Positions 26,627 to 64,000 of a DNA stretch of 64,000 bases are shown one piece after another. The position numbers and the translations under genes were made by a program. The notes below the pieces were generated by a model. The model saw only the letters and a program-made list of their open reading frames with translations, had not been told where the DNA came from and searched no databases. Every line of letters starts with the position of its first letter. The first letter of the stretch is position 1. The stretch lies in the IMG/VR virus record IMGVR_UViG_3300030616_000506, positions 64,001-128,000 of that record. One strand, written 5' to 3'. This DNA is from a virus.

Positions 26627-27196
26627 TTAGACCTTATTCCTATAAAGTTTCGGGTCTATAACATCCTTTGCTTTATCAATATCCAAATCTGGATAGTATA
26701 TCCTAAGTTCATTTAATTCACTTGGATAGTTACCATTATTAAATAGTCCTCTATGGGATATTAATATCAATTTTACATCGTCTCTTTTTCTCATTTCATC
26801 TAATATATTATTTCTAAGTTTAATTAACGCTAATCTTAAATCTTCTTTATCAGCTTCATACTCTTTGGAAGCCATTTTTAGTGTCGATTCAATTATTTCC
26901 TTTATATTTCTATCCATAAATATTACTTCATATTTACCCTTTGGTAGATATTTAAGACCATAAGCAGTTATTTTAATAAATTTACCTTTATATTTATCGA
27001 ATGGAAAATCCCCATTTTTTAGTTTATTTATTATTTTACCCTTCTCTAGTTCATAGTATCCTTTAGGATTATTCTTATCAGCTTCTCTAGAATCATCATA
27101 AGCTATCGGTAATCCTCCAGCTTTTAGTATTTGCATCATTAGACTAGTTCCAGATCTCTCTATACCAGATACGATATAGTTAGTCTTCTCGTTCAT
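26627..27196 (-). CDS. sulfotransferase family protein
   Basis: IVSGIERSGTSLMMQIL, NPKGYYE. Confidence 0.75.
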   Translation of the reverse strand: MNEKTNYIVSGIERSGTSLMMQILKAGGLPIAYDDSREADKNNPKGYYELEKGKIINKLKNGDFPFDKYKGKFIKITAYGLKYLPKGKYEVIFMDRNIKEIIESTLKMASKEYEADKEDLRLALIKLRNNILDEMRKRDDVKLILISHRGLFNNGNYPSELNELRIYYPDLDIDKAKDVIDPKLYRNKV

Positions 27197-27516
27197 ATCT
27201 TACTCACCATTAATTTATCTATATACTCTTGATATGTGATATTATTTAAATCCTCTAAATTATTTATAGCTTCTAAAGCTTCATATATATCTATTGTATA
27301 TTCTCCATCTTTAAATTTAATTTTAATATTTTCTCCACTGGATACGGGCTGTCCTAGTAATTTCAAATCTATGTTAGCGTAAGGATTATCCTCAGCACTC
27401 ATTTCTATATTGTATGCAGTCATCCCCCATAATTTAAATGCAAATTTAGATCCATTATCACCCATAGTTATAATCATGTAATCTCCGTTCATTTGAATTG
27501 ATCTGTCCTTCTTCAT
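27193..27516 (-). CDS. C-terminally tagged small protein (group B)
   Basis: IKFKDG..., ends DKLMVSKI. Confidence 0.6.
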   Translation of the reverse strand: MKKDRSIQMNGDYMIITMGDNGSKFAFKLWGMTAYNIEMSAEDNPYANIDLKLLGQPVSSGENIKIKFKDGEYTIDIYEALEAINNLEDLNNITYQEYIDKLMVSKI

Positions 27517-27610
27517 AATCTTACCGCCATTATAGCTTCTCCATATTCATTTATATCCATATGTATAACTATTTGGAGAAGTAGTTGTAGTATAATATGC
27601 AGTAATACCT

Positions 27611-27967
27611 TTAATTTCTACCATACGAATCTTCTAACCTTACAATATCTTCCTCTTTACATTCTCCGATTTGTATTTCTACAAATATAAAGTCTTTATC
27701 ATCTGATAAATTTTCTGCTCGGTGAATCATTCCTCTCGGAATATCTATATTATATCCCTTACTACAATACACTTTATCTTCATCTCTTGTTATTATACCT
27801 TCTCCTTCTACCACTATCCAATATTCATCTCTCTTTCTATGAACTTGCTTACTGAGTCTCTGATTTGGTTTAATTACAATCCTCTTAACCTTATAATTAG
27901 GTTTTTCTAAGATTAGTGCGTATGATCCCCACGGTTTAAGAGTTATCTCTTCACAATATATTTCCAT
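27611..27967 (-). CDS. cupin, mannose-6-phosphate isomerase type II C-terminal-like
   Basis: KPWGSY, LSKQVHRKRDEYW, HRAEN, EEDIVRLEDSYGR. Confidence 0.88.
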   Translation of the reverse strand: MEIYCEEITLKPWGSYALILEKPNYKVKRIVIKPNQRLSKQVHRKRDEYWIVVEGEGIITRDEDKVYCSKGYNIDIPRGMIHRAENLSDDKDFIFVEIQIGECKEEDIVRLEDSYGRN

Positions 27968-28264
27968 ATTTATCTTCCAAATGTTATAATTAAAATTGCC
28001 ATTATTATCTTATCAACTATCCATAAAGCTATAAGCCATGAGGTTTTTTTATCTATAGATGCTGTATCCTCTACAATGTCATCAACATCAACTGATATTT
28101 CTTCTATTTGTCCATTTTCTAGTTTATTCATATTTCATACTCTTGTACTGGATAAGGTCCTAATATCATATCTCTCTCACAGAAACACATAGGACATCTT
28201 GGTGGTGCATAAGTCGGAACTGTGAAAAACTCTTCACATCTTTTACAATAATACTTATATTCCA

Positions 28265-28570
28265 TTAATATCTCTTCCTATGTAATTTAGGTCTCTTTAT
28301 ATTCTTAATCATTTTCTTATTTATTTCGTTCTCTATATCTATATCTAGATATCCACAAAGATCAAATAATCTTATAAAGGTATCAGCTATCTCTTCCTTA
28401 AAGTTATCCTTATCTCCAAGTCTATCTGCTTCACAAGCTTCTCCTAGCTCTGTAACTATAAGCATTAATTTAGTTGGTATATCATTAGATGCATTCCAAA
28501 ATCCTTTTTCCTTAGCTATTCTATGACATTCTATTACATAATCATTTATATCATACATTATTCCCACCAT
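28265..28570 (-). CDS. MazG-like nucleotide pyrophosphohydrolase
   Basis: LMLIVTELGEACEA, EEIADTFIRLFD. Confidence 0.82.
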   Translation of the reverse strand: MVGIMYDINDYVIECHRIAKEKGFWNASNDIPTKLMLIVTELGEACEADRLGDKDNFKEEIADTFIRLFDLCGYLDIDIENEINKKMIKNIKRPKLHRKRY

Positions 28571-29011
28571 CTATTATTACAATGATTGCATTCAAATAAT
28601 CTTTCTTCAATTAATTTCCATATAACTCTATGTACCCATCTTCTTCTATATTTATTTAATTTCTTTATATTTCTAGATCCACACTCTGGGCACTTCTTTT
28701 TATAGAAATTCCATATCTTGCTCATTATTTCCAAGTTTCCTTATCTAGTTCTTCCTCTACCTCTGGATATCTCAATAATAATTCTGTGATTATAGCTTCT
28801 ATAGTTTCAAAGTTATCGTTGTCTTTCAGTATTTTATATTCATCTCTAACTAACTCTAATTCATATACTGCTCTTAATATATGTCTATCAATATCTATAT
28901 TACTCATTTTCTTTCTCCTTCCATTTACATCTTTTATTCTCTTCATCCCACCATATACAATCATTAAATGACTGACCACATTCTAATCCGTAGCCAGTCA
29001 CAAAACTAATA

Positions 29012-29752: not shown

Positions 29753-29762
29753 AGATATACCT

Positions 29763-29966: not shown

Positions 29967-29984
29967 TATATCCCTCCTTAAATC

Positions 29985-38857: not shown

Positions 38858-41413
38858 TTATTTACCTCCTTTTAATTTTTCCTTAATTTCTTTTGTCATG
38901 ACTTCCTTTCCTAATTTTCTAGAAGTCATATCAAATAGTCCATTTACTTTACCAAATAGACTACTCTTTAAATAGTTTTCATAATCAACTTCATATTCCT
39001 CTGGAAGACCCTCTTCTATTGGAAATGCTATGAAAACCTTCTTTCTCTTTATAACCCTAACACCTGTAGTTTCATCAGTTATTATAGGTATAATGCAGAA
39101 TTTGTCTCCAACCTCTACATCAAAATCATATTCTTCTCTTGCCCTAAGCAGAGCAGTTATATGATAAGGAATATTACCATGAGAACCATCCAATAGAGTT
39201 TTACCATACTCTTCTATTGGTTTAGTTAGGGGTTTTATTATTCCTAAATCTGATTTATTTATATCTCTCAGATTCAATATTTCCTTTTTTAATTGATAAA
39301 TCATACTCTCTTTACTAGCTCCCTTCATTTTTAATTTAATCATATTTATTTCTATATTGGCTAAAGGAGTTGGAGTTTCTGATCTCATAAAATTACATCC
39401 AGTAACATCCCAAGTTGAGTCATCATCTATACTACTATCTTCTGGTATTAATATATTTCTAGCTGGGCTATGTATATAGGCATGTGGATAATATCCTTTA
39501 ATATCTAACTCCGGCATTACCTTGGATCCTTCACTGTGATCCTCTAGTATATCATTTAGATAGCCAATCATCCCTTCATTATAACTCTTATTTATATTTA
39601 TGAAACACGAATCAGTGTGGGCATAAACCCAAGGTTGGCCAACAACATCACAAGCTTTCTTAACTACATCTATAAGATTTCTAACTATAGATGTGATTGC
39701 ATCTGCTACTTGATAATCTCTCATCCTTGAATTAGCCCATCCAAATATTCCGTGACTAAAGGCTGCTGCTTGTGTCTTTAATGCAAAGTCTATGGTTTTG
39801 TACCTTTTCCAAAGATTTGTATTTTTCTTAAGAGTTTTAAGTTTTTTCTTAATTTTTTTCCTATCATCCATAATTTCCTTAAGAGTTTCTATAAATACAC
39901 TTCTCTCATCATTAAATCTAACTTCCCTTTCTTTACCATCAACACTTATATATTTAACTATATTATTACCTTCAGGATCTTTGGTCTCTGGTGATACATT
40001 TTTAGATATAACCGCAAAGGGATAAGCATGAACCAAATCAGTTACCAATAATCCTTTATAGATACCTGGTCTTGCATCAGGTTCAGCAGCTTTATACTTA
40101 ACTTCATCTTGTTTTTCTGCAAAATCTCTTGTCGGTAATACTATACCCTCTTTATGATAGGCTCTTAACATAGCTATATCATTTACTACCGCAGTAATTT
40201 TCATATCATCTAAGGTTGACTGTAATGACCATCCTAATATCATATGTGCTTCAATTGCTCCAAGAAAATTATCAAGAATTTCTGGTATTATGGTATCCCT
40301 TACATTATATTCTAGAAGATCTTCTTCAGATAAATCTCCTATTCTGGTAGCACCTAGATGTATCTTATCTATTCCTGCCATTTGTACTCCAACGTTACCT
40401 AAAGACCACTTTCCTCTTATTTCTTGAGCATGCATTTTTCTAGCTAATGGTAACATATCCATTATAGCCATATTTTCAGAAATGTTAGGATCATATTCAG
40501 TATCTCCTAACTTTATTGTGTTATTTTCTTCCTTAAGATAATTATATTTAATTAATAAATCTATTAAATTTTTACTTTCATCATATGGAAAGTATCTATC
40601 TCCCATTCCCTTTATGTACTCTTCCTTATTTAAATTCCTTCCTTGTCTAGCATATTCAAGAAATTGATTTATCTTATCCAATATACCCATTTCATCCTTA
40701 ATTATACTATTTAGTGTAGTTATGTTCTTATCTCCATATATATCAAACTCTATATTCCAACCAGTTACCACATCATATTTGATGAGTTCTCTAAATAAGT
40801 CTAGAACTAATTCAGACTCATATTTGATATCATACTTAGATCCATATATTATATCAGTTTCTTGATTATTTATTGAGTAAGCTATTATCTCATTGGATAC
40901 TGGATGATCAGTTTCAATATCTAGAATAGCTACTTTTGGAGTAATTGGTTCCTTTGGTTTAAAGTAATCATAAGTATCTATTAAGAATCTCCTTACAAAT
41001 AATATATCAGCTTCATATGGTAAAGGCCAACCCATCTTTCTTCTAGTATCTCTATAGGTCTTGACTCTACTGGGATGCATTCCTTTAAAGATTATCTTCT
41101 CAACTGGAGTGCCTAAGTAGGATTTATATTCTCCCCCATCCTTCTTTATATAACAATATGGGTAAAATCCCTCTATCTTTATTTTAAATTTACCAGATTT
41201 TTTACCTCTACCTATTAGATATATTTTAGGACTATCCCATCCTTTATTGAAGTGATAATATCCCTCATAAATCTGCAGTGTATGATTTTCTATATCATTT
41301 ATTACACTTTTTGGAAAGTCCTCATTATAACAAAATTCATTATCATTAATATAAACTAGGGAATCTTTATCGAAATCTTTCTTCATTATATCCGGTAAAC
41401 TACATATTTTCAT
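38858..41413 (-). CDS. polB: family B DNA polymerase with 3'-5' exonuclease and non-canonical motifs
   Basis: Exo DIETD, GWNIEFD, YNVRD; pol motifs DLVHAYP, KTQAAAFSHGIFG, YAHTDS. Confidence 0.88.
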   Translation of the reverse strand: MKICSLPDIMKKDFDKDSLVYINDNEFCYNEDFPKSVINDIENHTLQIYEGYYHFNKGWDSPKIYLIGRGKKSGKFKIKIEGFYPYCYIKKDGGEYKSYLGTPVEKIIFKGMHPSRVKTYRDTRRKMGWPLPYEADILFVRRFLIDTYDYFKPKEPITPKVAILDIETDHPVSNEIIAYSINNQETDIIYGSKYDIKYESELVLDLFRELIKYDVVTGWNIEFDIYGDKNITTLNSIIKDEMGILDKINQFLEYARQGRNLNKEEYIKGMGDRYFPYDESKNLIDLLIKYNYLKEENNTIKLGDTEYDPNISENMAIMDMLPLARKMHAQEIRGKWSLGNVGVQMAGIDKIHLGATRIGDLSEEDLLEYNVRDTIIPEILDNFLGAIEAHMILGWSLQSTLDDMKITAVVNDIAMLRAYHKEGIVLPTRDFAEKQDEVKYKAAEPDARPGIYKGLLVTDLVHAYPFAVISKNVSPETKDPEGNNIVKYISVDGKEREVRFNDERSVFIETLKEIMDDRKKIKKKLKTLKKNTNLWKRYKTIDFALKTQAAAFSHGIFGWANSRMRDYQVADAITSIVRNLIDVVKKACDVVGQPWVYAHTDSCFININKSYNEGMIGYLNDILEDHSEGSKVMPELDIKGYYPHAYIHSPARNILIPEDSSIDDDSTWDVTGCNFMRSETPTPLANIEINMIKLKMKGASKESMIYQLKKEILNLRDINKSDLGIIKPLTKPIEEYGKTLLDGSHGNIPYHITALLRAREEYDFDVEVGDKFCIIPIITDETTGVRVIKRKKVFIAFPIEEGLPEEYEVDYENYLKSSLFGKVNGLFDMTSRKLGKEVMTKEIKEKLKGGK

Positions 41414-48023: not shown

Positions 48024-48310
48024 ATTCTTCGCTTCCTTCTTCCTCTAGCCTTTTTTTTACATTTATGTTTTTTCTTTTTTCTTGTTGCAGGTTTCTTATC
48101 CTTTTTTGGAGGTATTATTACTCTATTCTCATTCTTTTTTAGAATAACTAGATATCCAGCTATTCTATTTCTTAAGGGTTTACTATTTATTTCTGCTATA
48201 GAATCTATATATAGTTTATTAAGATTAAAGTCAGTAGTAATTTTATCTTTATGTTTCTTATAAATTTTATCAGCTAATGATTTAACGTAATATTGTCTAA
48301 CCTTTCCCAT
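48020..48310 (-). CDS. rps17e: ribosomal protein eS17 (S17e) with basic C-terminal tail
   Basis: MGKVR..VK..A..I...TTDFNLNK...SKPLRNRIAGY. Confidence 0.9.
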   Translation of the reverse strand: MGKVRQYYVKSLADKIYKKHKDKITTDFNLNKLYIDSIAEINSKPLRNRIAGYLVILKKNENRVIIPPKKDKKPATRKKKKHKCKKKARGRRKRRI

Positions 48311-48718: not shown

Positions 48719-49015
48719 TCATAAGGCAATCACCATTAATAAATCTTTAAGATGTTCTTTATCTCTGATACGATTTATATTAAAGTGTTCTCTTAAATTA
48801 AGATAATCTAAATAATCAACTCTCTCACTTGTACCATCTAGAAATTTTATCTCTTCTGTTAGAAAATTTGCTATATATTCATGTAAATTACTTTGTACCA
48901 TTTTAGGATCATATCCCATTTTAGTAACAGTATTAATGGCAGCAACAAGTTCATCTACTGTAACTCCACTTGAAGCTGCTATAGTTGACATCTTAACTAT
49001 TTGTTTTTTATTCAT
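48719..49015 (-). CDS. C-terminally tagged protein (group B); tape-measure-like N-terminal segment
   Basis: Start reassigned to ATG overlapping radA stop; IKFLDG..., ends LKDLLMVIAL. Confidence 0.55.
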   Translation of the reverse strand: MNKKQIVKMSTIAASSGVTVDELVAAINTVTKMGYDPKMVQSNLHEYIANFLTEEIKFLDGTSERVDYLDYLNLREHFNINRIRDKEHLKDLLMVIAL

Positions 49016-50054
49016 CACAGAAACCAAAGTCCTTTTTAAGTCTAACTGGATATAGCTGATCATCTTGTGGGACATCCGGTCTCCTAAGTAGCTTGATTCT
49101 TCTAGTTTCATTTCCCCATCCAGTTTCTGTTTGTAATTTCTTGGGTGCATCTATAAATTCTAGTGCATACTTTGAATTATAAAGTACAGGATTACCACCA
49201 TAAGGTTTACCTAGATCTCTACCAAATGGCATAACTGGATTGATACTAGCATGATGATTAACAACTACCGCTATATTATATCTAGCCGCTATATCATATA
49301 GTTTACCGTATAGTCTCTGCATTAACTCTGCTCTAGAGGGTAAGTTCTGTGTATTGGATCCTACTGAATCTTTTACTGGTTTAGTGAAAGAATCTATTAT
49401 TATCATTGAGGTTTCTTCCAACTCCTTCTCCTTAAGTTTAGGAGTACAGTTAGTAAACTTTAATGTATATTTACCATTTTTAGATATCTCATCTGTAACT
49501 ATATATCCAAACAATTGGAACATTTTTTGGTAGGATTTTAATTGAATGTCTCCCATTGTATGTATAACTTTATATTTGTCATCTATTGTTTTCTTATCTA
49601 ATCCCCATCTATCCATAAACTTATACTGAATAGCTCTAACATCATATGTCCTTAATCCTTCTGTCTCTATAAGAATTGTATTGTTTCCTGTTTCAGCTAT
49701 ATTAGCTAAACCTACTTGATGACCAAATAGTGATTTACCGGCAGTTGGTTCTCCATATATAGAAGTAACTATTCCATAGGGTACTCCTCCTCCAAGTAAT
49801 TCATCTACCTTATTACATCCAGTTGCTATAAAGTTTAATTTTTTCTTAACCATTTTATCATACTCCAAATTATTTATTAGATGAATAATATGCTTACAAC
49901 TCTTTCCTTCCTTACTAAATATATAGGAAGGACAGGTACACCACGATCTACAAAGTTCGGAGTCAGCACAGGTTATATATTCCTTACCACTATCTCCTAC
50001 TATAATAGCTCTGGCTATACCTAGATTATCATATTGTAAGCTCTTTATTATCAT
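49008..50054 (-). CDS. RadA/RecA-family ATPase with N-terminal SWIM zinc finger
   Basis: CTCPSY..CKH; GCNKVDELLGGG, GEPTAGKS, IIIDS, PYGG. Confidence 0.85.
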   Translation of the reverse strand: MIIKSLQYDNLGIARAIIVGDSGKEYITCADSELCRSWCTCPSYIFSKEGKSCKHIIHLINNLEYDKMVKKKLNFIATGCNKVDELLGGGVPYGIVTSIYGEPTAGKSLFGHQVGLANIAETGNNTILIETEGLRTYDVRAIQYKFMDRWGLDKKTIDDKYKVIHTMGDIQLKSYQKMFQLFGYIVTDEISKNGKYTLKFTNCTPKLKEKELEETSMIIIDSFTKPVKDSVGSNTQNLPSRAELMQRLYGKLYDIAARYNIAVVVNHHASINPVMPFGRDLGKPYGGNPVLYNSKYALEFIDAPKKLQTETGWGNETRRIKLLRRPDVPQDDQLYPVRLKKDFGFCDE

Positions 50055-53150: not shown

Positions 53151-53498
53151 TCATAAAATTTCTACCATCGCTTCTTCCTTATCTAACTTTTCTCCATACT
53201 CATTAATATATGATCTATTAACTAGAGCATTTTTATTATTGGTTATATTATAATATCTATAATGTTTACTAACATATCCTAGTATCCTTATTACTATAGT
53301 ATCATCATCTTTCCATTTTAATCTTAAAATATCTCCTTTCTTATATTTCTTTCTGTAACTCCATCTCTCCTTTAGATAACCTATAGGATGATAGGGAGAA
53401 TTATAAAAGATATGAGTTACTCCTACTACAGTGATAAGACAAAAACCAAATAATATTAGCACATACATTGTAGCATTAAATATATCTATCCAATTCAT
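53151..53498 (-). CDS. tagged small protein (group A), TM plus SH3-like
   Basis: KYKKGDILRL; ends EEAMVEIL. Confidence 0.65.
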   Translation of the reverse strand: MNWIDIFNATMYVLILFGFCLITVVGVTHIFYNSPYHPIGYLKERWSYRKKYKKGDILRLKWKDDDTIVIRILGYVSKHYRYYNITNNKNALVNRSYINEYGEKLDKEEAMVEIL

Positions 53499-53743
53499 AA
53501 TAACTCCACCATTATATCATCTTCTGATAATCTAGTTAATGTGTCATGTATCCTATCAATATAAGTGATTTCATCATCTTCAACACCACTATCTATATTA
53601 ATAATACACTTTATACAATCTTCAAAGCAATCATCTTTATAATGTACATCTATAATAATTATACCTATAAAACTCTCTCCATTATCTAAAGTTACCTTTA
53701 CAATATCTCCCTTATTTAAGTCAGTGAATTTTAAAGATGACAT
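53495..53743 (-). CDS. tagged small protein (group A)
   Basis: LNKGDIVKV; ends DDIMVELL. Confidence 0.65.
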   Translation of the reverse strand: MSSLKFTDLNKGDIVKVTLDNGESFIGIIIIDVHYKDDCFEDCIKCIINIDSGVEDDEITYIDRIHDTLTRLSEDDIMVELL

Positions 53744-54314
53744 CTCCCTTACCTTCTAAACAATACTTACATTTATCACAAGTTAATTTAGATCCATGAC
53801 CCTTACTACACATATGACCTGTAGGAGCATCTTTATAGTTAGGTATCTTATTACTACCATCATCTATAACATATGCCTTTAATCCATCTTTAGGTACTTC
53901 TTTACTATCAGGCCATATCGTCCAATAGAGTATAAGATTATCAGGTTTATAGCTTAAGTCTAAATCATATATTTGAGTATAGGCTAAGAACTTTATCTCT
54001 GGAAATAGATAAGCTATAGTACACCATGTGTTAAAATATTCCTGTGAATAGAAATCTCCTGATTCATGTATCCTAAAGTAAATAGGTTGCTTTAATGATA
54101 ACCAACTATATAAATTCCACATAAATTGTTTAAATCTTTTACTTTCTTTATAATTTTTTTCTCTACTAGGTAGAACATTAGGCCATACTCTCTCAGCTTT
54201 TTTAGCATAACAATATTCTTTACATAGATCAGTAGCTCCTGGACATGTAGTCTCTGCCGGTAGACTAAATGTGGGTATTTCCATTCTTCTATTACCACTA
54301 CTTATATATACCAT
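53721..54314 (-). CDS. GP88-family phage protein
   Basis: FSLPAETTCPGAT..C...CYA, FRIHESGDF, YT. Confidence 0.75.
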   Translation of the reverse strand: MVYISSGNRRMEIPTFSLPAETTCPGATDLCKEYCYAKKAERVWPNVLPSREKNYKESKRFKQFMWNLYSWLSLKQPIYFRIHESGDFYSQEYFNTWCTIAYLFPEIKFLAYTQIYDLDLSYKPDNLILYWTIWPDSKEVPKDGLKAYVIDDGSNKIPNYKDAPTGHMCSKGHGSKLTCDKCKYCLEGKGDVIFKIH

Positions 54315-56654
54315 TCTTTTTATTCTCCTGATATTCTAAAATACATTCCTTACAAACTTCTGGTAGCTGTTCACATAATCCATAATAAGTTCTATTGTAG
54401 AATCTAGGCATTTGTTCACATGGTAATCTATCTTTCCAATCAATCTCTTTCTTCATATTCTATCCCCATTTAGCCTTATTTATTTGTTGTTTTGTATAAT
54501 TTCTTTTTTCTTCTTCTATATTATCTTCTGATAGTTGTTCTCCCTGAATTACAAATATACTATCGTGTATCAAACCTAATTCTTCATTCATATAATCAAG
54601 GAGTCTTTCTATTTCCTTTTCATGATAATCATATATTTTATTTGGTATTATTATTCTAATCTCCATAATCTTCTCCATGTTCTATCACTTCCAAATCTAC
54701 ATCCGTACTTTCTATCTTTTCAAACTTACATCCACAATCTTTACATTCCCATACAGATACATCAGTCCAACTCCATTCGTCTCTCTGGATAACTTCAGAG
54801 TCATCTATAAGTTCTACATTATCACTATCACATTCAGGACAATAGTACATTATTATTCCTCTATAATATTGCATTTGCTATAAACATTAGTAAAACAAAG
54901 TTCACGATAGTAAGTCCTATTCCCACTCCATCTAAAAATTCTTTACTTATCATTTATATCTCCTCAAGCTCTTGCTTGAATATCATTATCAATTTCTCCT
55001 AATATTTTAGATACTTCCTCTAATTGTTTCCATTGTTCATCTGTAAGCATATAACAGGCTCTATCTATATTGTTAGCTCTGAATAATATATGTTGTGTTA
55101 AATCTCTTCCTTTCATTTAATATTCTCTCCTTAAATATAACCATACACATGATAAGAATATAGCTGCACCTAGAATAGGTATTCCCAACATCAAATATAA
55201 TGGTATTTCATATTGTTCTTCTATCAAAGTCATACCAGCAAATAATAATACTATTAACAATCCAGATAATAATACAGCTTTATCTATTAAGTAACTCATT
55301 CTCTCTGTCTCCTTCCATCTCCATAGTTCTTATCTTTATATTCTTGATATGGAATTATTATAAATAGAAAGGTAAATAGTGTAGGAATCATAGATGATAT
55401 AATCCCAAAAGCAAGACCTCTATCGCCTGATATTAGATAACCAATTACTCCACATAATAACATCCATCCACCTGCTATTAAGAACACCCCTAATAATTCC
55501 TTACTTATTTCTGTATTTACTTTGTTCTTCCAATACCATCTTAAAAATCCTTCTTTCTTTTTCATATCTTATCTCCTATATGTTTTTAAATCTGATACTC
55601 TAACATATTCTCTAGCATCATTTGGCATTTCTGCTATATAAAACTTAGCAAACATTGGAGCAGGTTTACCTACCATCTCTAGAGGAATAAAGTTTTCATC
55701 ATCTACAAAATCACTTTCTGATATCTCTTTTGCAGTATAAACTTTGACTCCATGTTCTTTAGCAAGTTGTCTATTTTTCTCTTTATCTCTATCCATTTGC
55801 TCCCAATGCTCTTCTAAATTTTTCATATCTGGAGTTTTTTCATTAACCACATAATCTTCTTCAATCACTTCTTTTATTGATTCTTTAATTAATTCTTTCA
55901 TCTCTTTCTTTTTCATTTAATCTACTTCCCATAATGCAATTCCTATAACCCAAGCAAATATTCCTTCAAAGAAACATATTAGTAATGTTACTAAAAAGGT
56001 TACTATAGATTGCCAGAATCCTATTGGATTTAGCAAGTTCCAGATACCAAATCCTATTAGAAAAGGTGACAAGAAACATCCTATACTTAATAGTTTATTT
56101 ATCATTCAATCACTCCTTATAGTATACTCTAACTCAAAACTCTTTATTATCTTTTTATTCTTCATATATTGTAGCAACTCATAGTAATCATTCATTAGAT
56201 TCTCTAGCTCACTTGTTCTCCAAGATGCTACAAACTTATCATTTACCTTTACATCCAAATATTCTGCCACCTTTATATCTCCTTAAATCTATCTACTTGT
56301 TTCATTTCTTTCTTCTTAGATACTTTAATATGATACCACATATATTTACATTTCCCACAATATTCCATATCTCTATATTCATAATCTGCACAATCAGATA
56401 TATAATGAATACAATCACTATATTTACAAGGCGAATTACCTAATGCTAATGCCATCTTTATATCTCTCCTAATGCTTCTATTACAGCTAGCCATCCAAAT
56501 ACTATCTCTCCTAAACCTGCAAATAATAATATTATTGCTAATAAACTATTTACAGAACTATTATAGTCATTAGCTAAAAACCATATTGCTATACTTGCTG
56601 TGATAATAAAACATATTATCATCAATGTTAAAAAGATTTTACTCCTTTCCATCT

Positions 56655-57206
56655 TTATATCTCCTTATACTCTCCATATAAATTCTTTTTACAGTAATTC
56701 AATTTAATCTTATTATATTGTTTTAAGACTGATGTAGTGGATACGGGAGTAAACTCATTGACATCTACTCCTACATTAATGATAGGAATACTGGGATTAC
56801 TCTTTAATAACTTGAACTTCCACTTCTCATGGATATGTCCACAGATTACAAAGTCACAGATAGGTAATATCTCTGGAGGATGATGTTGTACAAATACATC
56901 CTTACCTCCAAAGAACATCATGGCTTTATCAATATAAGTTTTAACTCCATTATTCATATCGTGATTTCCTCTGATGTGTACGATACTACCATTTAATTTC
57001 TGTTCAAATAATCTACCATTATCCTGACCCTTAAAGGCAAAGTCTCCAACATGATAAACTAAATCATCTTTACTAACAACATTATTCCATCTCTTAATAA
57101 TCTCTTCATTCATATGATTTACATTCTTGAATGGTCTATTGGTATACTTAATAATATTGTCATGGTCAAAGTGACAATCTGCAGAAAAATATATTTTCAT
57201 TTTCAA
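56655..57206 (-). CDS. calcineurin-like metallophosphoesterase
   Basis: ADCHFDH, HVGD, GNHD, GHIH, NVGVD. Confidence 0.9.
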   Translation of the reverse strand: MKMKIYFSADCHFDHDNIIKYTNRPFKNVNHMNEEIIKRWNNVVSKDDLVYHVGDFAFKGQDNGRLFEQKLNGSIVHIRGNHDMNNGVKTYIDKAMMFFGGKDVFVQHHPPEILPICDFVICGHIHEKWKFKLLKSNPSIPIINVGVDVNEFTPVSTTSVLKQYNKIKLNYCKKNLYGEYKEI

Positions 57207-57316
57207 TCACTTCCAAAATTGTTTCATTATACATCTATAATGTCCAACTGTCATGCCTATGTGATAAGTATCATCACCTAATGATTTACCACATATATCA
57301 CATTTATCCATTTACA

Positions 57317-57733
57317 TTACTCCCATTTATAAGGTAAGTCATCTGGAATATCCCAATTATACTTACCATAAAACTCTTTATCCTTTCTTAATAGATTACT
57401 CTTATGAGCATCATGGAAATCTTTTCTACCAAGCCAAGGGGGATACTTAACTATCGCAGGACATCCTAACAATGTCATGTTGTTTTTATATCCTCTTTTA
57501 ATCCATTCTTCAACTATTACATTATGATATTCTATCAATGCAGGTAAATAATCATACCATAGGTATATGGCAGGATGATTACCCCAAGCAACATCTGAAG
57601 CATCTTTACCATTCTTAATTTGCATTATCACATTTATTATTTGTCTTGCTTCTACTCTCTGCTTACCTAATCTTCTATAGTCTAAACATTCAGCTGACTT
57701 TTTAAAATCAGCATATGGTAAAAAGGTTTGCAT
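57317..57733 (-). CDS. pyrimidine-dimer DNA glycosylase-like (DenV/MSMEG_6728 family)
   Basis: MQTFLPY..LDYRRLGKQRVEA, HPA, HKSNLLRKD. Confidence 0.82.
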   Translation of the reverse strand: MQTFLPYADFKKSAECLDYRRLGKQRVEARQIINVIMQIKNGKDASDVAWGNHPAIYLWYDYLPALIEYHNVIVEEWIKRGYKNNMTLLGCPAIVKYPPWLGRKDFHDAHKSNLLRKDKEFYGKYNWDIPDDLPYKWE

Positions 57734-57775
57734 ATTACATCTCCTGTACAAATACTATCTCAATAATCTTAGGTA

Positions 57776-58021
57776 TTAAAGCTCTTCTATCATTAATTTG
57801 TCCTTGCTTATTTTCATTACACATTTTTTATCTATTGCTCCATACTTATGGGGATTTTCTGACTTTAACATCTTAACATAATAGAACTCTTCTCCATCAT
57901 CTCCTATTATGTATCCATAATGATCATCCCAAACTAAACCTACCCATCCACAATCTTCATCTCCAGGTATAGAATATAGATAAGTAGTCTTTAATACTCT
58001 AAAGTAATCACCCTTTTTCAT
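57776..58021 (-). CDS. tagged small protein (group A)
   Basis: MKKGDYFRV; ends DKLMIEEL-TAA. Confidence 0.65.
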   Translation of the reverse strand: MKKGDYFRVLKTTYLYSIPGDEDCGWVGLVWDDHYGYIIGDDGEEFYYVKMLKSENPHKYGAIDKKCVMKISKDKLMIEEL

Positions 58022-58263
58022 AATGATGCAACCATAGCCTCATCTTCCGTTAATTCTGTAGCACATTTATCCCAATAGTATCTGCTACAATATATTATTC
58101 CTATATTTCCTTCTATAGGATCTACATATAATTTATACTTAAGACTAACTCCATACATACAACCATCAGGTTGATGTTTTACTCCTGCTAATCTAATCAC
58201 ATAATGCTCTTCTCTGAAAGTATCATTGTATCTATAATATCTACCTATCTTCATTGATGTCAT
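58018..58263 (-). CDS. tagged small protein (group A)
   Basis: MKIGRYYRY; ends DEAMVASL. Confidence 0.65.
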   Translation of the reverse strand: MTSMKIGRYYRYNDTFREEHYVIRLAGVKHQPDGCMYGVSLKYKLYVDPIEGNIGIIYCSRYYWDKCATELTEDEAMVASL

Positions 58264-58493
58264 AAACTATCAACAATTAATTCATCAAGAGTATCATAAA
58301 ATTTAAACATCTGATGCCAACCAAATTCACTGTCTCCTTTCCATATCCAATGATACTTAACTTTAGGATTATGGGGATAATTTGATTTTATTAATTCATA
58401 TTTATAAACTACTTTACACTCTTTAAATATCTTACCTACTATATAAAAACCTATTTTATCTATTTTAAAATACTTTCCTTCTTTAGATTTCAT
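58260..58493 (-). CDS. tagged small protein (group A)
   Basis: KEGKYFKI; ends DELIVDSL. Confidence 0.65.
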   Translation of the reverse strand: MKSKEGKYFKIDKIGFYIVGKIFKECKVVYKYELIKSNYPHNPKVKYHWIWKGDSEFGWHQMFKFYDTLDELIVDSL

Positions 58494-58761
58494 ACATCAT
58501 CATCTCATCTAATAGATTTTTACCTAAATAAGATAGTAACTTTTTCTTATTATTAAATCTGACAGATACATTCTTATCATCATCTGCACTTATTAAAATA
58601 ACTTCATAATCATCATCAACACCACCATGAATAACTAATGATAATCTATTATCCTTTAATTTATAAACCCATAAATAGTAATCATAATTAACCACATAGA
58701 ATACATCTGGATATATTAAATTAATTAATTCTTCTACTTCATTACATATTCTATTCTTCAT
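58483..58761 (-). CDS. tagged small protein
   Basis: Ends DEMMMYEI. Confidence 0.6.
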   Translation of the reverse strand: MKNRICNEVEELINLIYPDVFYVVNYDYYLWVYKLKDNRLSLVIHGGVDDDYEVILISADDDKNVSVRFNNKKKLLSYLGKNLLDEMMMYEI

Positions 58762-58997
58762 AATAGTTCAACCATAACTTCTTCATAAGATAGTTTCTTA
58801 CAAATTTCATTCTTGAAGTTTAAACCAATCCATCTATCTCCCCACATCCATTGAAGTTTTCCAATAGTTTTTATTATTTTAAATTTATATTGATTAATTT
58901 TATTTTTATTTATAATTTTTAATATATAAACTCCGTGTAAATATCTAGACTCATATAATATATAGTCTCCTATCTCAAATTTATCATAGGGTCTCAT
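58758..58997 (-). CDS. tagged small protein (group A)
   Basis: KFEIGDYILY; ends EEVMVELL. Confidence 0.65.
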   Translation of the reverse strand: MRPYDKFEIGDYILYESRYLHGVYILKIINKNKINQYKFKIIKTIGKLQWMWGDRWIGLNFKNEICKKLSYEEVMVELL

Positions 58998-59386
58998 ATC
59001 TTATCAACTATATTTGCATCTATTACATAAGTAAAGTCATGATACATTCTTATTGAATACTTATAATCATCATTCTCTATATCATTTGTATAAGATAATC
59101 TATTAACTACCCAATCAAAATCCTTTTTATTAAGTAAACCAAATGAGCCTAAACTATAATATTCTCCATAAAACTTTTTATTATAAGATAACTTTAAATC
59201 AGCTCTATTCATTAAGTTCTTAACTAATGGCATAGATATATCTATAGCCTCAGGATTTATTGTTAAATATACTCCTCCCCAATTCTTATCATCATTACTC
59301 TTATATATAGTTCCCCATATATTACCAGTTATCTTTTCATTATCACTTTTTCTAGTGATTATATATTCCCCTATCTTTTTCTTCAT
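58994..59386 (-). CDS. tagged small protein (divergent tag)
   Basis: Ends DANIVDKI. Confidence 0.55.
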   Translation of the reverse strand: MKKKIGEYIITRKSDNEKITGNIWGTIYKSNDDKNWGGVYLTINPEAIDISMPLVKNLMNRADLKLSYNKKFYGEYYSLGSFGLLNKKDFDWVVNRLSYTNDIENDDYKYSIRMYHDFTYVIDANIVDKI

Positions 59387-59395: not shown

Positions 59396-60307
59396 CTAAA
59401 TTAATCTATGTAAGATATAAGGTGATACTTCCTCTCTAAATTTAGAATAAGCCTTTGAGTTATTTTCATATACTTTCTTAACATTATCTATAATATCTTC
59501 CAATAATCCAATAGCTCTATCATCTAATTGTCCTAACATAAATCTATCATCATCACTTAATCCTGCACCAAGAACAATTCTATAACCATAATAAGCATCT
59601 TTTTTACTAAAGTTTAAATTTATTAAATCAGATTCAATTGATACCCTCATTTTATCATAATTTATAATAGATAAATCTTGTATACCTTCACTATAATTAT
59701 TTTCAATCTTAATCCTATTAGTATTTAATTTTATTTCATTATCCTTTAAATCTATATCCCTCCATGCTAATGCACATTTCCTAAATGCTCTAAATATTTC
59801 TTTCTTATCCTCTTTTTTTATGTAATCCTCTATATCAGGATTTCTTTCTACTATATATAAGATAGCTTTAAAGTCATCCATCATCTTTGTTGCATCTTTA
59901 TCATGTTGTCTATAACTCCAATAGTAATATCTATCATTAGGTTTAAAGGCTAATCCTCTAGAATTTAACCATAATTCTTTTTCCCATGTAGATTCCTTTA
60001 CCTTATCGGATATCTTTATATTTGTTTCTATTCTACCCGATATTATTCCATGAAAGGATTTAAAGTATAATTCCCTAAATGAATTCCTAATATTACTTAA
60101 GCTATTCTCTCCCCTCATATATGTATTAACTTCATCTATTAAACTTTCTAATCCCTCTACTTCATTTGTATTATCTATAATAAACTTTTCTGTTATTTTC
60201 TCTTTCTTTTCCTTTATATCATTTATTTGATTTTCTAGTTTATCCTTCTCTAAATCAAGTTCTTCTATTTTTTTATTTACATCTTCTATCTTTTTATTTA
60301 TATCCAC
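59396..60307 (-). CDS. hypothetical protein with N-terminal coiled coil
   Basis: 303 aa, GGAGGT SD; no tag match. Confidence 0.6.
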   Translation of the reverse strand: MDINKKIEDVNKKIEELDLEKDKLENQINDIKEKKEKITEKFIIDNTNEVEGLESLIDEVNTYMRGENSLSNIRNSFRELYFKSFHGIISGRIETNIKISDKVKESTWEKELWLNSRGLAFKPNDRYYYWSYRQHDKDATKMMDDFKAILYIVERNPDIEDYIKKEDKKEIFRAFRKCALAWRDIDLKDNEIKLNTNRIKIENNYSEGIQDLSIINYDKMRVSIESDLINLNFSKKDAYYGYRIVLGAGLSDDDRFMLGQLDDRAIGLLEDIIDNVKKVYENNSKAYSKFREEVSPYILHRLI

Positions 60308-60317: not shown

Positions 60318-60557
60318 CTATAAACTCTCAACTATCATTTCATCTTTACTTATCTTTTTATAATCCCAAGCATCCTTATGACAAGTTATTCCTATTAATC
60401 TACTGTGCCTCATAAATTCATTAGTTATAATACTAGTAAATATCTGTTTTAGTTTAACTTCTATTAAATTATTATATTGTTTTACTGACTCAATATAAAT
60501 AAATGATTTATATTTACCATCTGGATATATATAGTATTCTCCCTTTTTAGGTATCAT
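60318..60557 (-). CDS. tagged small protein (group A)
   Basis: PKKGEYYIY; ends DEMIVESL-TAG. Confidence 0.65.
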   Translation of the reverse strand: MIPKKGEYYIYPDGKYKSFIYIESVKQYNNLIEVKLKQIFTSIITNEFMRHSRLIGITCHKDAWDYKKISKDEMIVESL

Positions 60558-60784
60558 AGTAATTCAACCATAGCCTCATCTTTAGATAATTTCTTTAAAT
60601 CAAAAGCATATCTTTTTATACCATTAGTATGATTTATAAAATATTCTCCATATATATTTGGTATATATAATAATGGACATATTAAGTAGTAATCAGTATC
60701 TACTTCCTCCTTTATGATTCCATATATAGGATTATCTTTATATGGATAATCTGATTTAACTAAATCTCCTTTCTTAAATTTCAT
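60554..60784 (-). CDS. tagged small protein (group A)
   Basis: MKFKKGDLVK; ends DEAMVELL. Confidence 0.7.
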   Translation of the reverse strand: MKFKKGDLVKSDYPYKDNPIYGIIKEEVDTDYYLICPLLYIPNIYGEYFINHTNGIKRYAFDLKKLSKDEAMVELL

Positions 60785-61008
60785 AATAACTCTACCATTA
60801 CTTCATCTCTATTTGCTATCCTTAAACATTTATCATCAAACAATTCTGTTCTTCCTTTAATCCTTCCATTTAGAAATCTAACAATATATGGATATTTTTT
60901 AATTGGATATACATCTATTATTTCTGCTATTAATCCAACTTGATTCCTATAATATGTAACCTTTGGATGAAGTATTATCTTCACATAATCTCCTACTTTA
61001 TACTTCAT
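60781..61008 (-). CDS. tagged small protein (group A)
   Basis: MKYKVGDYVKI; ends DEVMVELL. Confidence 0.7.
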   Translation of the reverse strand: MKYKVGDYVKIILHPKVTYYRNQVGLIAEIIDVYPIKKYPYIVRFLNGRIKGRTELFDDKCLRIANRDEVMVELL

Positions 61009-61247
61009 AACAATTCTACCATTACTTCATCTTTATTCTTAATAAAAGTTATATCTATTACTGATGAATCTAAATTAAAATGTCCTTTTTCTCCTACATC
61101 CCAAACACTATTCTCATCAGCATATATAACTTTACAATAAGGAAATTTATTTATTCTTGTATTATATTCTAATACTACAAAATATACTTCAAATGATTTG
61201 TAATATTTATATATAGCCTTTATATAATCTCCCTTTTTAAATTTCAT
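61005..61247 (-). CDS. tagged small protein (group A)
   Basis: MKFKKGDYIK; ends DEVMVELL. Confidence 0.7.
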   Translation of the reverse strand: MKFKKGDYIKAIYKYYKSFEVYFVVLEYNTRINKFPYCKVIYADENSVWDVGEKGHFNLDSSVIDITFIKNKDEVMVELL

Positions 61248-61483
61248 AAATTAAACACCATTATTTCATCATCAGTTAACTTCCTATCAATTTCCTCTTC
61301 AGATAATAAAAACTCAAACTCAGTGTTAACATAACTTGAATTTAGTATCTTAACTAGATAGGGATATTTTCTATCCTTTCTTAATTTAGTTACTATTGCT
61401 ACCTTATTCTCAAATCCATCATAAATTGTTTTTCCTATTAATATATAATCATTTAATTTATATAATAGTTTCTTGAATCTCAT
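61244..61483 (-). CDS. tagged small protein (group A)
   Basis: YKLNDYILI, KYPY; ends DEIMVFNL. Confidence 0.65.
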   Translation of the reverse strand: MRFKKLLYKLNDYILIGKTIYDGFENKVAIVTKLRKDRKYPYLVKILNSSYVNTEFEFLLSEEEIDRKLTDDEIMVFNL

Positions 61484-61671
61484 AACATCTCTACCATAAT
61501 TTCATCATTAGATAATTTTTTATAATCAACACTATCACTAAAATAAATCTTTGTATTAGGATTAAATAATGATTCCCCTTCATAGCAATAAATATAATTA
61601 CTCTCTATTATAGTAATTCTAAATAATTCTCCTTCATGATTTTTAATTACATCTCCTTCTTTAAACTTCAT
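61480..61671 (-). CDS. tagged small protein (group A)
   Basis: MKFKEGDVIK; ends DEIMVEML. Confidence 0.7.
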   Translation of the reverse strand: MKFKEGDVIKNHEGELFRITIIESNYIYCYEGESLFNPNTKIYFSDSVDYKKLSNDEIMVEML

Positions 61672-61964
61672 AATAATTCTACCATTAATTCTTCCTTTAA
61701 TTTATTAATGTCATTAACCTTAAACCATCTCCTATGTAAAGCAGGAAATATAAAACTTAAATTTATAGGGAGATTCCAGTATGTTATATCATTTGTATTA
61801 ATTTTACTATCATTAGTTTTCTTATATAAAACTTTAACTTCAACATAATTAAAATCTGCTCCAGCCATATACCTTTTCTTTAATTCTAATATCCTTCTAA
61901 TCTCTAACACAAATATATTAACCTTATTATCATCTACTTGTGCAATTATATCTCCTATTTTCAT
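61668..61964 (-). CDS. tagged small protein (group A)
   Basis: MKIGDIIAQ; ends EELMVELL. Confidence 0.65.
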   Translation of the reverse strand: MKIGDIIAQVDDNKVNIFVLEIRRILELKKRYMAGADFNYVEVKVLYKKTNDSKINTNDITYWNLPINLSFIFPALHRRWFKVNDINKLKEELMVELL

Positions 61965-62287
61965 AAAAATTCAACCATAAGACTATCCAGTATATCATCT
62001 TCATAGCACTCTAATATATCTACTTCCTTATCAGATATCTTTTTCCAAACTTCTGACCACATTAAGCTAGATTTTTCATTAGTAAAATTCTCATCTACCT
62101 CTCTAATCCAAGTTCCTTTATTATTTGCTGTGATTATTCTAGAAGTTTCCTTTATTAGAACAGCAGGAAACAAATCATATTTACCCTTCTCAATATCAAT
62201 TATATTAGCCAACCAATAATATATAATATAATCTTTAGTTTCCTTTACTATATTAAAAGTCATATTCCTATAATGTTTTCTTAACAT
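61961..62287 (-). CDS. tagged small protein
   Basis: Ends DSLMVEFL. Confidence 0.6.
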   Translation of the reverse strand: MLRKHYRNMTFNIVKETKDYIIYYWLANIIDIEKGKYDLFPAVLIKETSRIITANNKGTWIREVDENFTNEKSSLMWSEVWKKISDKEVDILECYEDDILDSLMVEFL

Positions 62288-62298
62288 TTCTTTATAAT

Positions 62299-63639
62299 TT
62301 AATTTCTTTTTGGTAATTCTATCACTTGTCCATAAGGAAAATCTTTAGAATCTGCTCTCCAATGTCCAGCTACTACCCATAAGACAGGCATATTAACTTG
62401 ACTTTTAGGAGGAAATGATGTATAACCATCCGTAAAGGCTATAACAAATTTAGATTGAGGTTTATTCTTATTAATCCAATCAAATACGGGAATGTGGCTA
62501 GTGCCTCCTCCTCCCTTAAGATTCTTACCTATTCTCTCAACTACTTCAGATGCTTGAGCATTTCTCATGGGATGAATACCATTTACTTGACAATCACAAT
62601 CTATTACCGTTAAATCAACATTCTTAAAACTATTACATATACTAGATATTTCAGATATAAATTCTGCTAATTCTTTTTGACTTATACTTCCTGATGTATC
62701 TACTGCTACCATTACATCTATACTTTCCCTAACAGTATCAGGTAGATATATTCCTGTGCTATAACTTCTTTTAGATGGTTTAGCCCAAGTAAAATCTATA
62801 GGAATTTGATTTGTTATATATCTATAAAGTAATCCTTTCCAATCAATATAAGTTTCCATTAATTGTCCAACTACTCTCTCCATACCTGCTGGTAAATCTC
62901 CTCTTTGCCTAGCATAAGTGCAAGCATCTACTAAAGTCTTTTTCCAATCAACTTGTTTATCAGATATCTTCTTACCATTCTTATTACCAGTTCCATTACA
63001 TTTAGGGCAATCCTTATCTCCTACCTTACCTGTTCCATTACAGTTATCACACTTACCATTTTTCTTTTTATCACCTTTACCATCACCATTACCATAGATA
63101 TGTTTATCAAAACCCTTAACACCATTCTTCTCTAGGTATTTCTTAATGGCTTTCATATCCTTTTTAATCTTTTTAGATAGTCCTCTATATAGTTTATCAT
63201 ATACTTCTTCAGATGTTTTCTCAGATGCTTTCTTAATAGTAATACCAAATATAGTTATCTCTCCATTATAGGGATTAATAGCATTTTCAGGTAAACTCAT
63301 ACCATCATCTAATAGCATAGAATTAATTACTGTATCTGATGCTATATTAAATAACTCGTGGTTTTTACCCTTACCTCTCTCTAAATGTTCTAATGCACAA
63401 TGCATTACTTCATGTGCCATTACTCCCTTTATCTGGTCATCTGTTAGTTTATTTATAAAATCTGAATTAAAATACAGATTACCATACATATCTACTCCTG
63501 CTGTTTCTATTTCAGGTTGCTCTATAAAGGTTAAGTGCATAGTTAAATAACTAAAGAAGGGTTTCTCTTTTTGTAATTGCACTCTAGCCCTTATAAGTTT
63601 TTCTTCTGCTGTTAAATCTAGGTTTAATATTCCACTCAT
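62299..63639 (-). CDS. DUF2201-type metallopeptidase-VWA protein with CxxCxGxG zinc-finger insert
   Basis: AHEVMH; CDNCNGTG and CPKCNGTG; MIDAS DTSGS, GGGGT, FTDG. Confidence 0.85.
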   Translation of the reverse strand: MSGILNLDLTAEEKLIRARVQLQKEKPFFSYLTMHLTFIEQPEIETAGVDMYGNLYFNSDFINKLTDDQIKGVMAHEVMHCALEHLERGKGKNHELFNIASDTVINSMLLDDGMSLPENAINPYNGEITIFGITIKKASEKTSEEVYDKLYRGLSKKIKKDMKAIKKYLEKNGVKGFDKHIYGNGDGKGDKKKNGKCDNCNGTGKVGDKDCPKCNGTGNKNGKKISDKQVDWKKTLVDACTYARQRGDLPAGMERVVGQLMETYIDWKGLLYRYITNQIPIDFTWAKPSKRSYSTGIYLPDTVRESIDVMVAVDTSGSISQKELAEFISEISSICNSFKNVDLTVIDCDCQVNGIHPMRNAQASEVVERIGKNLKGGGGTSHIPVFDWINKNKPQSKFVIAFTDGYTSFPPKSQVNMPVLWVVAGHWRADSKDFPYGQVIELPKRN

Positions 63640-63640
63640 A

Positions 63641-63847
63641 TTACAACTCCTCTATCATTATTTCCTCTCTTAATTTTTTAGTATCAAAATTTATAGCTAT
63701 ATACTTTGCTATACATTCATATATTTTACCTCTCCTTTCTATTACGGGATATGCTTCACAATAGTCATTTCTACAATCCTCTATCGTATTCCAATCTTCT
63801 ATTATATCTAGTAAATCATCTATCTTTTTCTCTATTTCTTTATTCAT
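63641..63847 (-). CDS. tagged small protein
   Basis: Ends EEIMIEEL-TAA. Confidence 0.6.
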   Translation of the reverse strand: MNKEIEKKIDDLLDIIEDWNTIEDCRNDYCEAYPVIERRGKIYECIAKYIAINFDTKKLREEIMIEEL

Positions 63848-64000
63848 ATTGCATACACCATAACTTCCTCTAAAGTTAATTGAAATATTTTATCATCACT
63901 ATATACAAGTAAATATGTATCAGGATTACCATTTTCATCTGCGTATATACATTGAAAGGAATATAGATTATCTACATCTAGAAATCTAATTACCTTACCA
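63844..64000 (-). CDS. tagged small protein (5' end outside window)
   Basis: Not in ORF track; manual translation ...SDDKIFQLTLEEVMVYAI-stop, ATGA overlap with 63641..63847. Confidence 0.6.
   Translation of the reverse strand, partial: GKVIRFLDVDNLYSFQCIYADENGNPDTYLLVYSDDKIFQLTLEEVMVYAI

Follow-up and report, generated by a model that had tools for sequence, protein, structure and literature searches.

In a stretch of 64,000 nucleotides of viral DNA (the window), corresponding to bases 64001-128000 of the 144,545-bp contig IMGVR_UViG_3300030616_000506 (G+C content ~30%), many small genes of one strand encode proteins that differ in their bodies and end in the same short peptide, [S/T]-K-D-E-h-M-[V/I]-E-x-L, placed directly ahead of the stop codon. 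The DNA specifying this tail is dual coding: it encodes a protein motif that is under selection at the protein level, and over codons -5 to -3 (counted back from the stop) it also carries the ribosome-binding site of the next gene. We propose that the tail is a common docking handle read by one co-evolving partner, and give this reading a probability of roughly one half (0.5). The principle of a short terminal peptide read by a hub is known; the sequence of this tail, the scale of its use, the virus clade in which it occurs and its dual coding are new, and no published description of such a system was found in the literature searched.

Of the 247 proteins of the genome, 30 terminate in [DE]xx[MFIAL][VIM]xx[LI] followed by the stop (24 of them in the window); under a composition null the mean is 0.24 and the maximum 3. 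When the pattern is anchored 1-30 residues upstream of the C-terminus, it matches 0-2 proteins, and the internal rate of this loose pattern is 0.001 per position, so that both the enrichment and the registration to the stop codon claimed in the original prediction are borne out. An index that presupposes no motif, the number of protein pairs with at least four identical residues among the last eight, gives 269 for this genome versus 23-64 for internal windows; elsewhere it reaches 189 versus 0-4 (locus L046) and 341 versus 1-23 (locus L071). All tagged genes belong to the minus-strand arm and account there for 30 of the 107 genes of at most 150 amino acids (aa). A further 6-8 members of this genome lie outside the window, ending for example in ...NKLMVELL or ...KEAFIEAL. 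Among the 25 C-termini listed in the original prediction, 24 proved to be real minus-strand ends of open reading frames (ORFs) of 63-146 aa, with coordinates and residues as reported. The exception, ...EAIMAVRL at 27513-27560 (minus strand), is from its ATG merely a 15-codon mini-ORF with Ala at -4, and is not a bona fide tagged gene; it keeps an ATGA junction with the next gene, and may be a decayed remnant of a tagged gene otherwise lost, retained because it carries the downstream ribosome-binding site.

Many tagged genes overlap the start of the following gene in an ATGA, and in these ATG-GTN at codons -5 and -4 places GGT 12 nt ahead of the next start. In this genome, GGT is found at 18 of 23 overlapping tails, at 1 of 7 non-overlapping tails and at 1 of 41 untagged ATGA junctions, the single GGT-bearing 'untagged' junction being a tagged gene that the first pattern had missed. 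The same holds on a larger scale in a set of 145 non-redundant tagged proteins (median length 84 aa) drawn from related metagenome contigs, with an ATGA overlap in 103 of the tails: GGT stands at -12 in 81% of the overlapping tails versus 42% of those without overlap. Across these 145 tails, Val at -4 drops from 89% with overlap to 53% without, Ile taking its place (Fisher p=7e-6), and the difference for Met at -5 (83% versus 76%) is not significant. GTG codons number 41 where 7.4 are expected, and GAG is used at -3 in 36 cases versus 19. A Shine-Dalgarno (SD)-like purine motif is thus present 5-9 nt upstream of the overlapping start together with a bias in synonymous codons, as is expected for translational coupling. 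This SD overlay biases position -4 to Val (GTG) and position -3 to GAG, and sharpens the M-V core. The codons of K-9, D-8 and E-7, on the other hand, match genome usage nearly exactly, and Leu-1 in tails without overlap is encoded by every Leu codon at genome frequencies. Because the codons at -9, -8, -7 and -1 follow genome usage and because the motif is kept without an ATGA overlap (Met at -5 in 29 of 38 such tails, Asp at -8 in 30 of 38), the tail must be under protein-level selection, as had been argued originally from the same two observations, synonymous variation and retention without overlap, both of which were correct. The caveat raised at the time, that conservation might follow a GGT Shine-Dalgarno core, applies to positions -5 to -3 and fails in the rest of the tail. 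The M-V core arises in part as a side effect of the ribosome-binding site that the overlapping next gene requires.

Two trivial origins of the tail were ruled out. It is no generic consequence or by-product of gene overlap, since 40 of the 41 untagged ATGA junctions of the genome carry unrelated residues. Neither does tail identity reflect gene conversion or a DNA-level repeat, given the genome-like usage at synonymous sites -9, -8, -7 and -1.

With the tail removed, 72 of the 145 proteins join one family with a predicted SH3/Tudor-like beta-barrel (family A), and the other 73 split among many clusters. Two of these are Cys4 zinc-ribbon-like families; others are a 'YLWV..VIHGG' family, one of 130-aa proteins and one of ~200-aa proteins. 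In the present genome an iterated profile united 10 tail-trimmed proteins, which start with MKFKxGDY, in family A. The original description of the bodies as a variable library of domains holds in large part but is overstated, about half of the tagged proteins being paralogues of this one family. Within family A the last eight residues are 57% identical versus 19% for the body, and between family A and the remaining proteins the last eight are 47% identical versus 10% just upstream. Some other subfamilies share 40-45 C-terminal residues and not eight alone; in subfamily B, ~45 residues forming a hairpin, a helix and the tag helix are common, and its KFKDG motif is reminiscent of the way family A proteins begin. 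Tagged proteins are soluble and combine a mildly basic body with an acidic tail of net charge -2; only 1% of them are likely to span the membrane, versus 17% for small genes without the tag. For none of them could a function be recognised, Pfam and PHROGs having returned sub-threshold matches alone (PsaE, DUF1918, zinc-ribbons).

A scan of metagenome contigs with the tail-coding pattern yielded ~20 AT-rich loci with dense arrays, and chance matches without arrays in GC-rich sequences. Tagged genes account for 22 of 34 genes in L046, 11 of 14 in each of L035 and L047, and 5 of 5 in L024; up to 65% of the genes within one 12-kb stretch are tagged, and across the clade between one third and two thirds of the small, soluble proteins encoded in the early region bear the tail. 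When 1.8 billion representatives were searched exhaustively with a profile, 15 divergent family A members were recovered from outside, all with DE(A/V)MVELL-like tails. A word search of 5.8 billion proteins with the family A alignment found nothing beyond this virus and near-identical strains, and IMG/VR gave no match to the tail-coding pattern. In prokaryotic genomes that pattern produced chance single matches and one viral contig in a metagenome-assembled genome (MAG) of Candidatus Saccharibacteria, which we do not trust as a host call. The contig in question (L008/L060, CAZNER010000036.1; MAG label 'uncultured Candidatus Saccharibacteria') is a 20-kb piece of the virus clade, and its binning is probably an artefact, given its archaeal-type genes.

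More distant relatives, for which a DUF2201 protein encoded within the arrays served as guide, use different versions of the tail. Whereas the G clade has the M-V version, ~30 of 63 genes in L067 (~50% identical) end in E-x-F-[L/M]-E-x-L and ~41 of 65 genes in L071 (49%) in T-K-D-E-V-R-M-E-M-L; L068 (49%) has D-E-x-I-M-E-x-L, L072 (48%) has ...I-A-E-L-L and L070 (40%) a loose version alone, and no shared tail was seen in L069 (42%) and L073 (38%). Every version has the S/T-x-x-E capping box and keeps both E at -3 and L at -1; they diverge at positions -5, -4 and -2. Proteins that are homologous in their bodies carry the version of their own lineage: zinc-ribbon homologues end in EIFMEEL versus DKLMVDKL and ~200-aa homologues in KIFMENL versus DNLMVEKL (both E=1e-14), and the same is seen for the pairs DDIIMEML versus KEAFLELI (E=9e-18) and DEIRVAML versus DEVMVELL (E=3e-9), all E-values referring to the body only. 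The tails of several pre-existing body families have therefore changed in concert within a lineage, as a shared, co-evolving reader would predict, and to this extent the common hub inferred originally is consistent with the sequences. The ribosome-binding site has been accommodated differently as well. In L067 the SD is built as xxG-GAG, giving GGAG at -9, and non-overlapping genes retain F-L-E with TTA GAA; no SD includes F at -5 in L067 (TTT) or M at -2 in L071, and both residues persist without overlap. The clade thus offers a clean natural example of dual coding, in which lineages have reached different joint solutions for motif and ribosome-binding site.

The logo of the 145 tails (D-8 82%, M-5 82%, V-4 80%, E-3 63%, L-1 86%) and the structure models suggest what such a handle could look like. 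The tail would be a short, autonomous C-terminal alpha-helix that is capped by an S/T-x-x-E box at -10 to -7, is acidic at -8, -7 and -3, has one hydrophobic face and ends in Leu or Ile. By means of it, dozens of small soluble early-region proteins with varied bodies would be recognised by one partner, which would co-evolve with the tail in each virus lineage. Both AlphaFold2 models, one of family A and one of subfamily B, end in a helix that coincides with the tag, in line with the acidic C-terminal helix predicted at the outset; that of family A is a five-stranded barrel followed by the tag helix, with a predicted local distance difference test score (pLDDT) of 71 overall and 84-88 over the tail. 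Clamp-binding peptides follow the consensus Q-x-x-[LIM]-x-x-[FYW]-[FYW] (the PIP-box) or are of the QL[SD]LF type, and the 145 C-termini do not conform to these, their logo having neither Gln nor an aromatic pair.

A single reader is inferred to exist, and the only candidate by position is a pair formed by a MoxR-like AAA+ ATPase and a zincin metallopeptidase-VWA protein; as an identification of the reader this is doubtful. The larger genes that recur inside the arrays, in at least six lineages, encode a 381-aa ATPase, the DUF2201 protein and a ~303-aa orphan, and GP88-like, metallophosphatase and radical-SAM genes recur near them. The DUF2201 protein (62299-63639, minus strand) combines an HExxH metallopeptidase (PF13203, E=1e-39; HEVMH conserved in all orthologues), two CxxCxGxG zinc-finger repeats of the DnaJ type and a VWA domain (PF09967, E=6e-27) whose metal ion-dependent adhesion site (MIDAS) is intact, DTSGS...T...D being conserved. 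The 381-aa ATPase, just past the window end, matches AAA_5 at E=0.003, below cutoff, and its orthologues match AAA_5 faintly or weakly, signals of the MoxR type, with Walker A and B conserved; it had no PDB match even with a seven-sequence profile and no NCBIfam match. For the ~303-aa protein (59396-60307, minus strand; six loci) Pfam, NCBIfam, PDB and the atlas gave no lead. The MIDAS of the pair could hold an acidic residue of the tail or its terminal carboxylate, so as to remodel or clip clients. One may go further and imagine a virus-encoded client-tagging system, in which the AAA+/metallopeptidase-VWA machine reads the capped acidic helix, at the MIDAS or another site, and remodels, clips or delivers a fast-evolving library of dozens of small host-takeover proteins, tag and reader co-evolving in each lineage; this fuller scenario we likewise consider doubtful. 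A complex prediction for the DUF2201 protein (with Mg and Zn) and a family A protein scored 0.00, which is evidence neither way. A zinc-finger insert in the DUF2201 protein was ruled out as determinant of the tags, being present in the G clade and L071 and absent in the heavily tagged L067.

Several observations weigh against a docking handle. Half of the tagged set is one paralogous family, so that sharing of the tail is in part common descent. The lineage-variable positions -5 and -4 also bear the SD overlay, and differing ribosome-binding-site solutions may contribute to the concerted change there. In the PWWP and chromo-barrel folds, which are among the best, if weak, structural matches of family A, the C-terminal helix belongs to the domain, and that of family A could therefore be structural. 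The AAA+/DUF2201 pair occurs without a shared tail in L069, L073, cyanophage S-TIM61 and Salmonella phage 40, and no feature of the DUF2201 protein tracks the tails, HExxH and MIDAS being present everywhere. Finally, no reader was found.

One alternative does without any common partner. Here the tail would be a structural, intramolecular helix that descends from a single small domain in an ancestor and has been kept unusually conserved because its codons hold the next gene's ribosome-binding site and ATGA junction in tightly packed arrays. The size of family A, in whose SH3/Tudor-like folds a C-terminal helix is common, would fit such an origin, as would the long C-terminal stretch shared in subfamily B with its family A-like KFKDG, and the strong SD overlay seen in the GGT and GTG counts. 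The fold matches of family A are weak but uniform, to Tudor, PWWP, chromo-barrel, KOW and PsaE folds (Foldseek E>0.1; best Z 5.0-5.2, for 6kco, 2eqm and 2f5k), with weak profile matches to PsaE and uL24 (E 0.005-0.03); the Tudor, PWWP, chromo-barrel and KOW barrels resemble the predicted family A structure in having five strands and a C-terminal helix, but by sequence family A belongs to none of these families. A helix of the barrel does not, however, explain why the tail is also found on bodies, Cys4 zinc-ribbon-like and others, for which no kinship to family A is detectable, nor why F-5 and M-2, outside the SD, have changed in concert across body families. Packing for the sake of translation, for its part, is at odds with the freedom of synonymous sites outside -5 to -3, with the retention of the motif without overlap, and with the untagged ATGA junctions, which meet the SD need with quite different residues. 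On these grounds we consider the structural explanation unlikely, though to be taken seriously.

It is also conceivable that the tails bind one another, the amphipathic helices bundling into homo- or hetero-oligomers, as a mixed assembly or condensate, with no separate hub. A short amphipathic helix with a conserved hydrophobic face would be suited to this, and a change of version throughout a lineage is expected as well if tails have to match; a helix of nine residues is, however, short for a stable bundle, and we regard this explanation as improbable. Equally improbable is a degron or timer, by which a host or viral protease or unfoldase would read the free hydrophobic C-terminus and limit the lifetime of early proteins. 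The tagged genes do lie in the early/replication arm, their products end in hydrophobic residues with a free carboxylate, and the arrays include genes for a metallopeptidase and an AAA+ ATPase; yet the tail resembles no degron that could be tested, the AAA+ protein looks MoxR-like and not like an unfoldase of the Clp, Lon or PAN type, and its pair with DUF2201 exists without tags too. Least probable of these is a capsid-targeting peptide that loads a library of small proteins into an HK97-type head for co-injection, which has in its favour the analogy of terminal peptides common to unrelated small soluble proteins, as in encapsulin cargo or the T4 capsid-targeting sequence, and against it the lack of tagged genes in the plus-strand structural arm and the very large cargo set implied where up to 65% of the genes are tagged.

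The docking-handle reading has several precedents in outline. In phages, docking tails are known from T4 gp43, gp33 and gp55, which bind the clamp, from the acidic ends of T7 gp2.5 and gp4, and from the C-terminal tail of SSB. They are alike in being short acidic and hydrophobic C-termini by which unrelated proteins share one hub, but they occur on a few DNA-handling enzymes and are mostly disordered, whereas the virus tag is predicted to be helical and occurs on at least 30 orphan small proteins per genome. Variable target-binding bodies with a conserved C-terminal element that docks to a hub are also found in the ankyrin/PRANC (F-box-like) proteins of poxviruses and in SOCS/BC-box proteins. 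These large paralogue sets provide a functional analogy; they belong to a different domain of life, are related neither in sequence nor in fold, and no ubiquitin-type machinery was identified in the virus.

Another close parallel is the bacterial vWA-MoxR conflict module, where a zincin peptidase accompanies small, rapidly diverging proteins whose C-terminal peptide is conserved (the FxSxx-COOH, RxD and acidic types), a radical-SAM enzyme is sometimes present, and the vWA MIDAS has been proposed to capture peptides (Kaur, Burroughs, Iyer and Aravind 2020, PMC7159879). The virus shares with it the small, fast-diverging proteins of which the C-terminal peptide is the conserved part, and a neighbourhood in which a zincin HExxH peptidase, a MIDAS-bearing vWA domain and a radical-SAM enzyme are likewise encoded, beside an ATPase with faint MoxR-type signals. 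It differs in that its genes belong to a virus, peptidase and vWA form one fusion protein, and there are dozens of tagged genes per genome and not one; its tail is a capped helix, as predicted, of different sequence, VMAP, STAND and AP-ATPase partners were not seen, and the peptidase pair is present also without tags, so that pair and tag do not consistently co-occur. What looks like the same two-gene module as in the virus arrays is known from group 2.2 jumbo phages, as a MoxR AAA+/metallopeptidase-vWA chaperone pair proposed to act in virion assembly and structural-protein processing (Iyer et al. 2021, PMC7824862). That paper describes no tagged client set, and S-TIM61 and Salmonella phage 40, examined here, have no shared tail. 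We found DUF2201 homologues in 654 phage records, that of S-TIM61 adjoining an annotated MoxR-like ATPase; if the pair should be the reader, this would provide a function for a widespread and so far unexplained module of large phages. The small early genes of uncultured viruses are mostly orphans, and here up to two-thirds of them in one stretch bear an address-like helix. The tail peptide, used as a single bait, could therefore retrieve a common machine and define a probable host-takeover set in viruses of poorly known archaea.

Within the window the tagged ORFs, all on the minus strand, are partly scattered and partly arranged in arrays. A weak one, absent from the original list, lies at 20575-20949 (124 aa, ...DKLLVSCI). 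Subfamily B is represented at 27193-27516 (107 aa, ...DKLMVSKI; KFKDG hairpin and two helices) and at 46286-46726 (146 aa, ...DKVFVDEL; TAA stop, no overlap). A run at 43734-43988 (84 aa, ...DWIMVNRL), 43985-44305 (106 aa, ...DRLFVIRL) and 44302-44529 (75 aa, ...DLIAVERL) precedes an ORF at 48719-49150 (143 aa, ...DLLMVIAL). Family A appears at 53151-53498 (115 aa, ...EEAMVEIL; with a hydrophobic N-terminal extension) and 53495-53743 (82 aa, ...DDIMVELL), next to the gene for a GP88-like protein (PF17338; 53721-54314, minus strand), which among large genes is the most frequent neighbour of tagged arrays (11 loci). Then come 57776-58021 (81 aa, ...DKLMIEEL; TAA stop, no overlap), 58018-58263 (81 aa, ...DEAMVASL), 58260-58493 (77 aa, ...DELIVDSL), 58483-58761 (92 aa, ...DEMMMYEI; 'YLWV..VIHGG' family), 58758-58997 (79 aa, ...EEVMVELL; family A) and 58994-59386 (130 aa, ...DANIVDKI; the separate 130-aa family). 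Beyond the embedded ~303-aa gene, family A occupies 60318-60557 (79 aa, ...DEMIVESL; TAG stop followed by its own GAGGT), 60554-60784 (76 aa, ...DEAMVELL; the protein modelled), 60781-61008 (75 aa) and 61005-61247 (80 aa), both ending in ...DEVMVELL, 61244-61483 (79 aa, ...DEIMVFNL) and 61480-61671 (63 aa, ...DEIMVEML). These are followed by 61668-61964 (98 aa, ...EELMVELL) and 61961-62287 (108 aa, ...DSLMVEFL) and, past the DUF2201 gene, by 63641-63847 (68 aa, ...EEIMIEEL; TAA stop) and the 3' part of an ORF at 63844-64000 (...EEVMVYAI; 81 aa in the genome), which continues past the window end.

The plus-strand arm of the genome carries large structural genes, and the minus-strand arm a glycan-synthesis cluster, replication genes and numerous small genes. 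The replication genes, all on the minus strand, encode PolB, RNR, a Rad51/RadA-like recombinase (49008-50054, 348 aa), a short XPF-type nuclease with ERCC4 and HhH2 domains (46723-47355, 210 aa) and a separate PolB-type 3'-5' exonuclease (RNase_H_2/DNA_pol_B_exo1; 44483-45154, 223 aa). The XPF-type nuclease and the Rad51/RadA-like recombinase constitute a recombination kit of archaeal/eukaryotic type inside a tailed virus. The free-standing exonuclease gene, ~3 kb from that of PolB (38858-41413, 851 aa), is kept in L007 and L008, and may be part of a split polymerase-exonuclease arrangement, since the Pfam match of PolB itself spans residues 411-828, the polymerase part only. PolB had no tblastn match among 50,697 phage records and no match in IMG/VR. 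At 48020-48310 (minus strand) a 96-aa homologue of ribosomal protein S17e is encoded, which matches Pfam at 48.2 bits (cutoff 22.8) over its first 59 residues and has a very basic tail after them. S17e is specific to archaea and eukaryotes. A ribosomal protein of this kind is unusual in a virus, and it is the best clue in the genome to the domain of the host. Together with the recombinase and nuclease types it suggests an archaeal host, and the virus is probably an archaeal tailed virus of an uncultured AT-rich clade. One distant DUF2201 homologue is labelled Candidatus Woesearchaeota; tRNA genes are absent from the entire genome.

Some further features of the minus-strand arm deserve mention. 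In the middle of the replication/early arm, at 45686-46261 (minus strand), lies the gene for a protein of 191 aa that contains a collagen triple-helix repeat (E=1.6e-8). The glycan cluster (6032-12431, minus strand) includes four paralogous genes for proteins of 286-362 aa (at 6032, 7607, 10272 and 11370), two of which have like ends, ...HPPEH(K/I)NFI. Just past the window, in L010 4315-5974 (genome 132315-133974), three small proteins share the opening M(I/M/L)(D)LNPNCSE, a second shared-terminus motif in the same arm, here N-terminal; their genes adjoin that of a 272-aa radical-SAM enzyme kept in eight related loci. The small-gene arm is also a hot spot of gene turnover: comparison of L004 11265-15000 with window positions 54300-57750 shows that near-identical strains differ by cassette swaps among the small genes, involving a Dam methylase and a relocated Pyr_excise (T4 endoV-like) gene.

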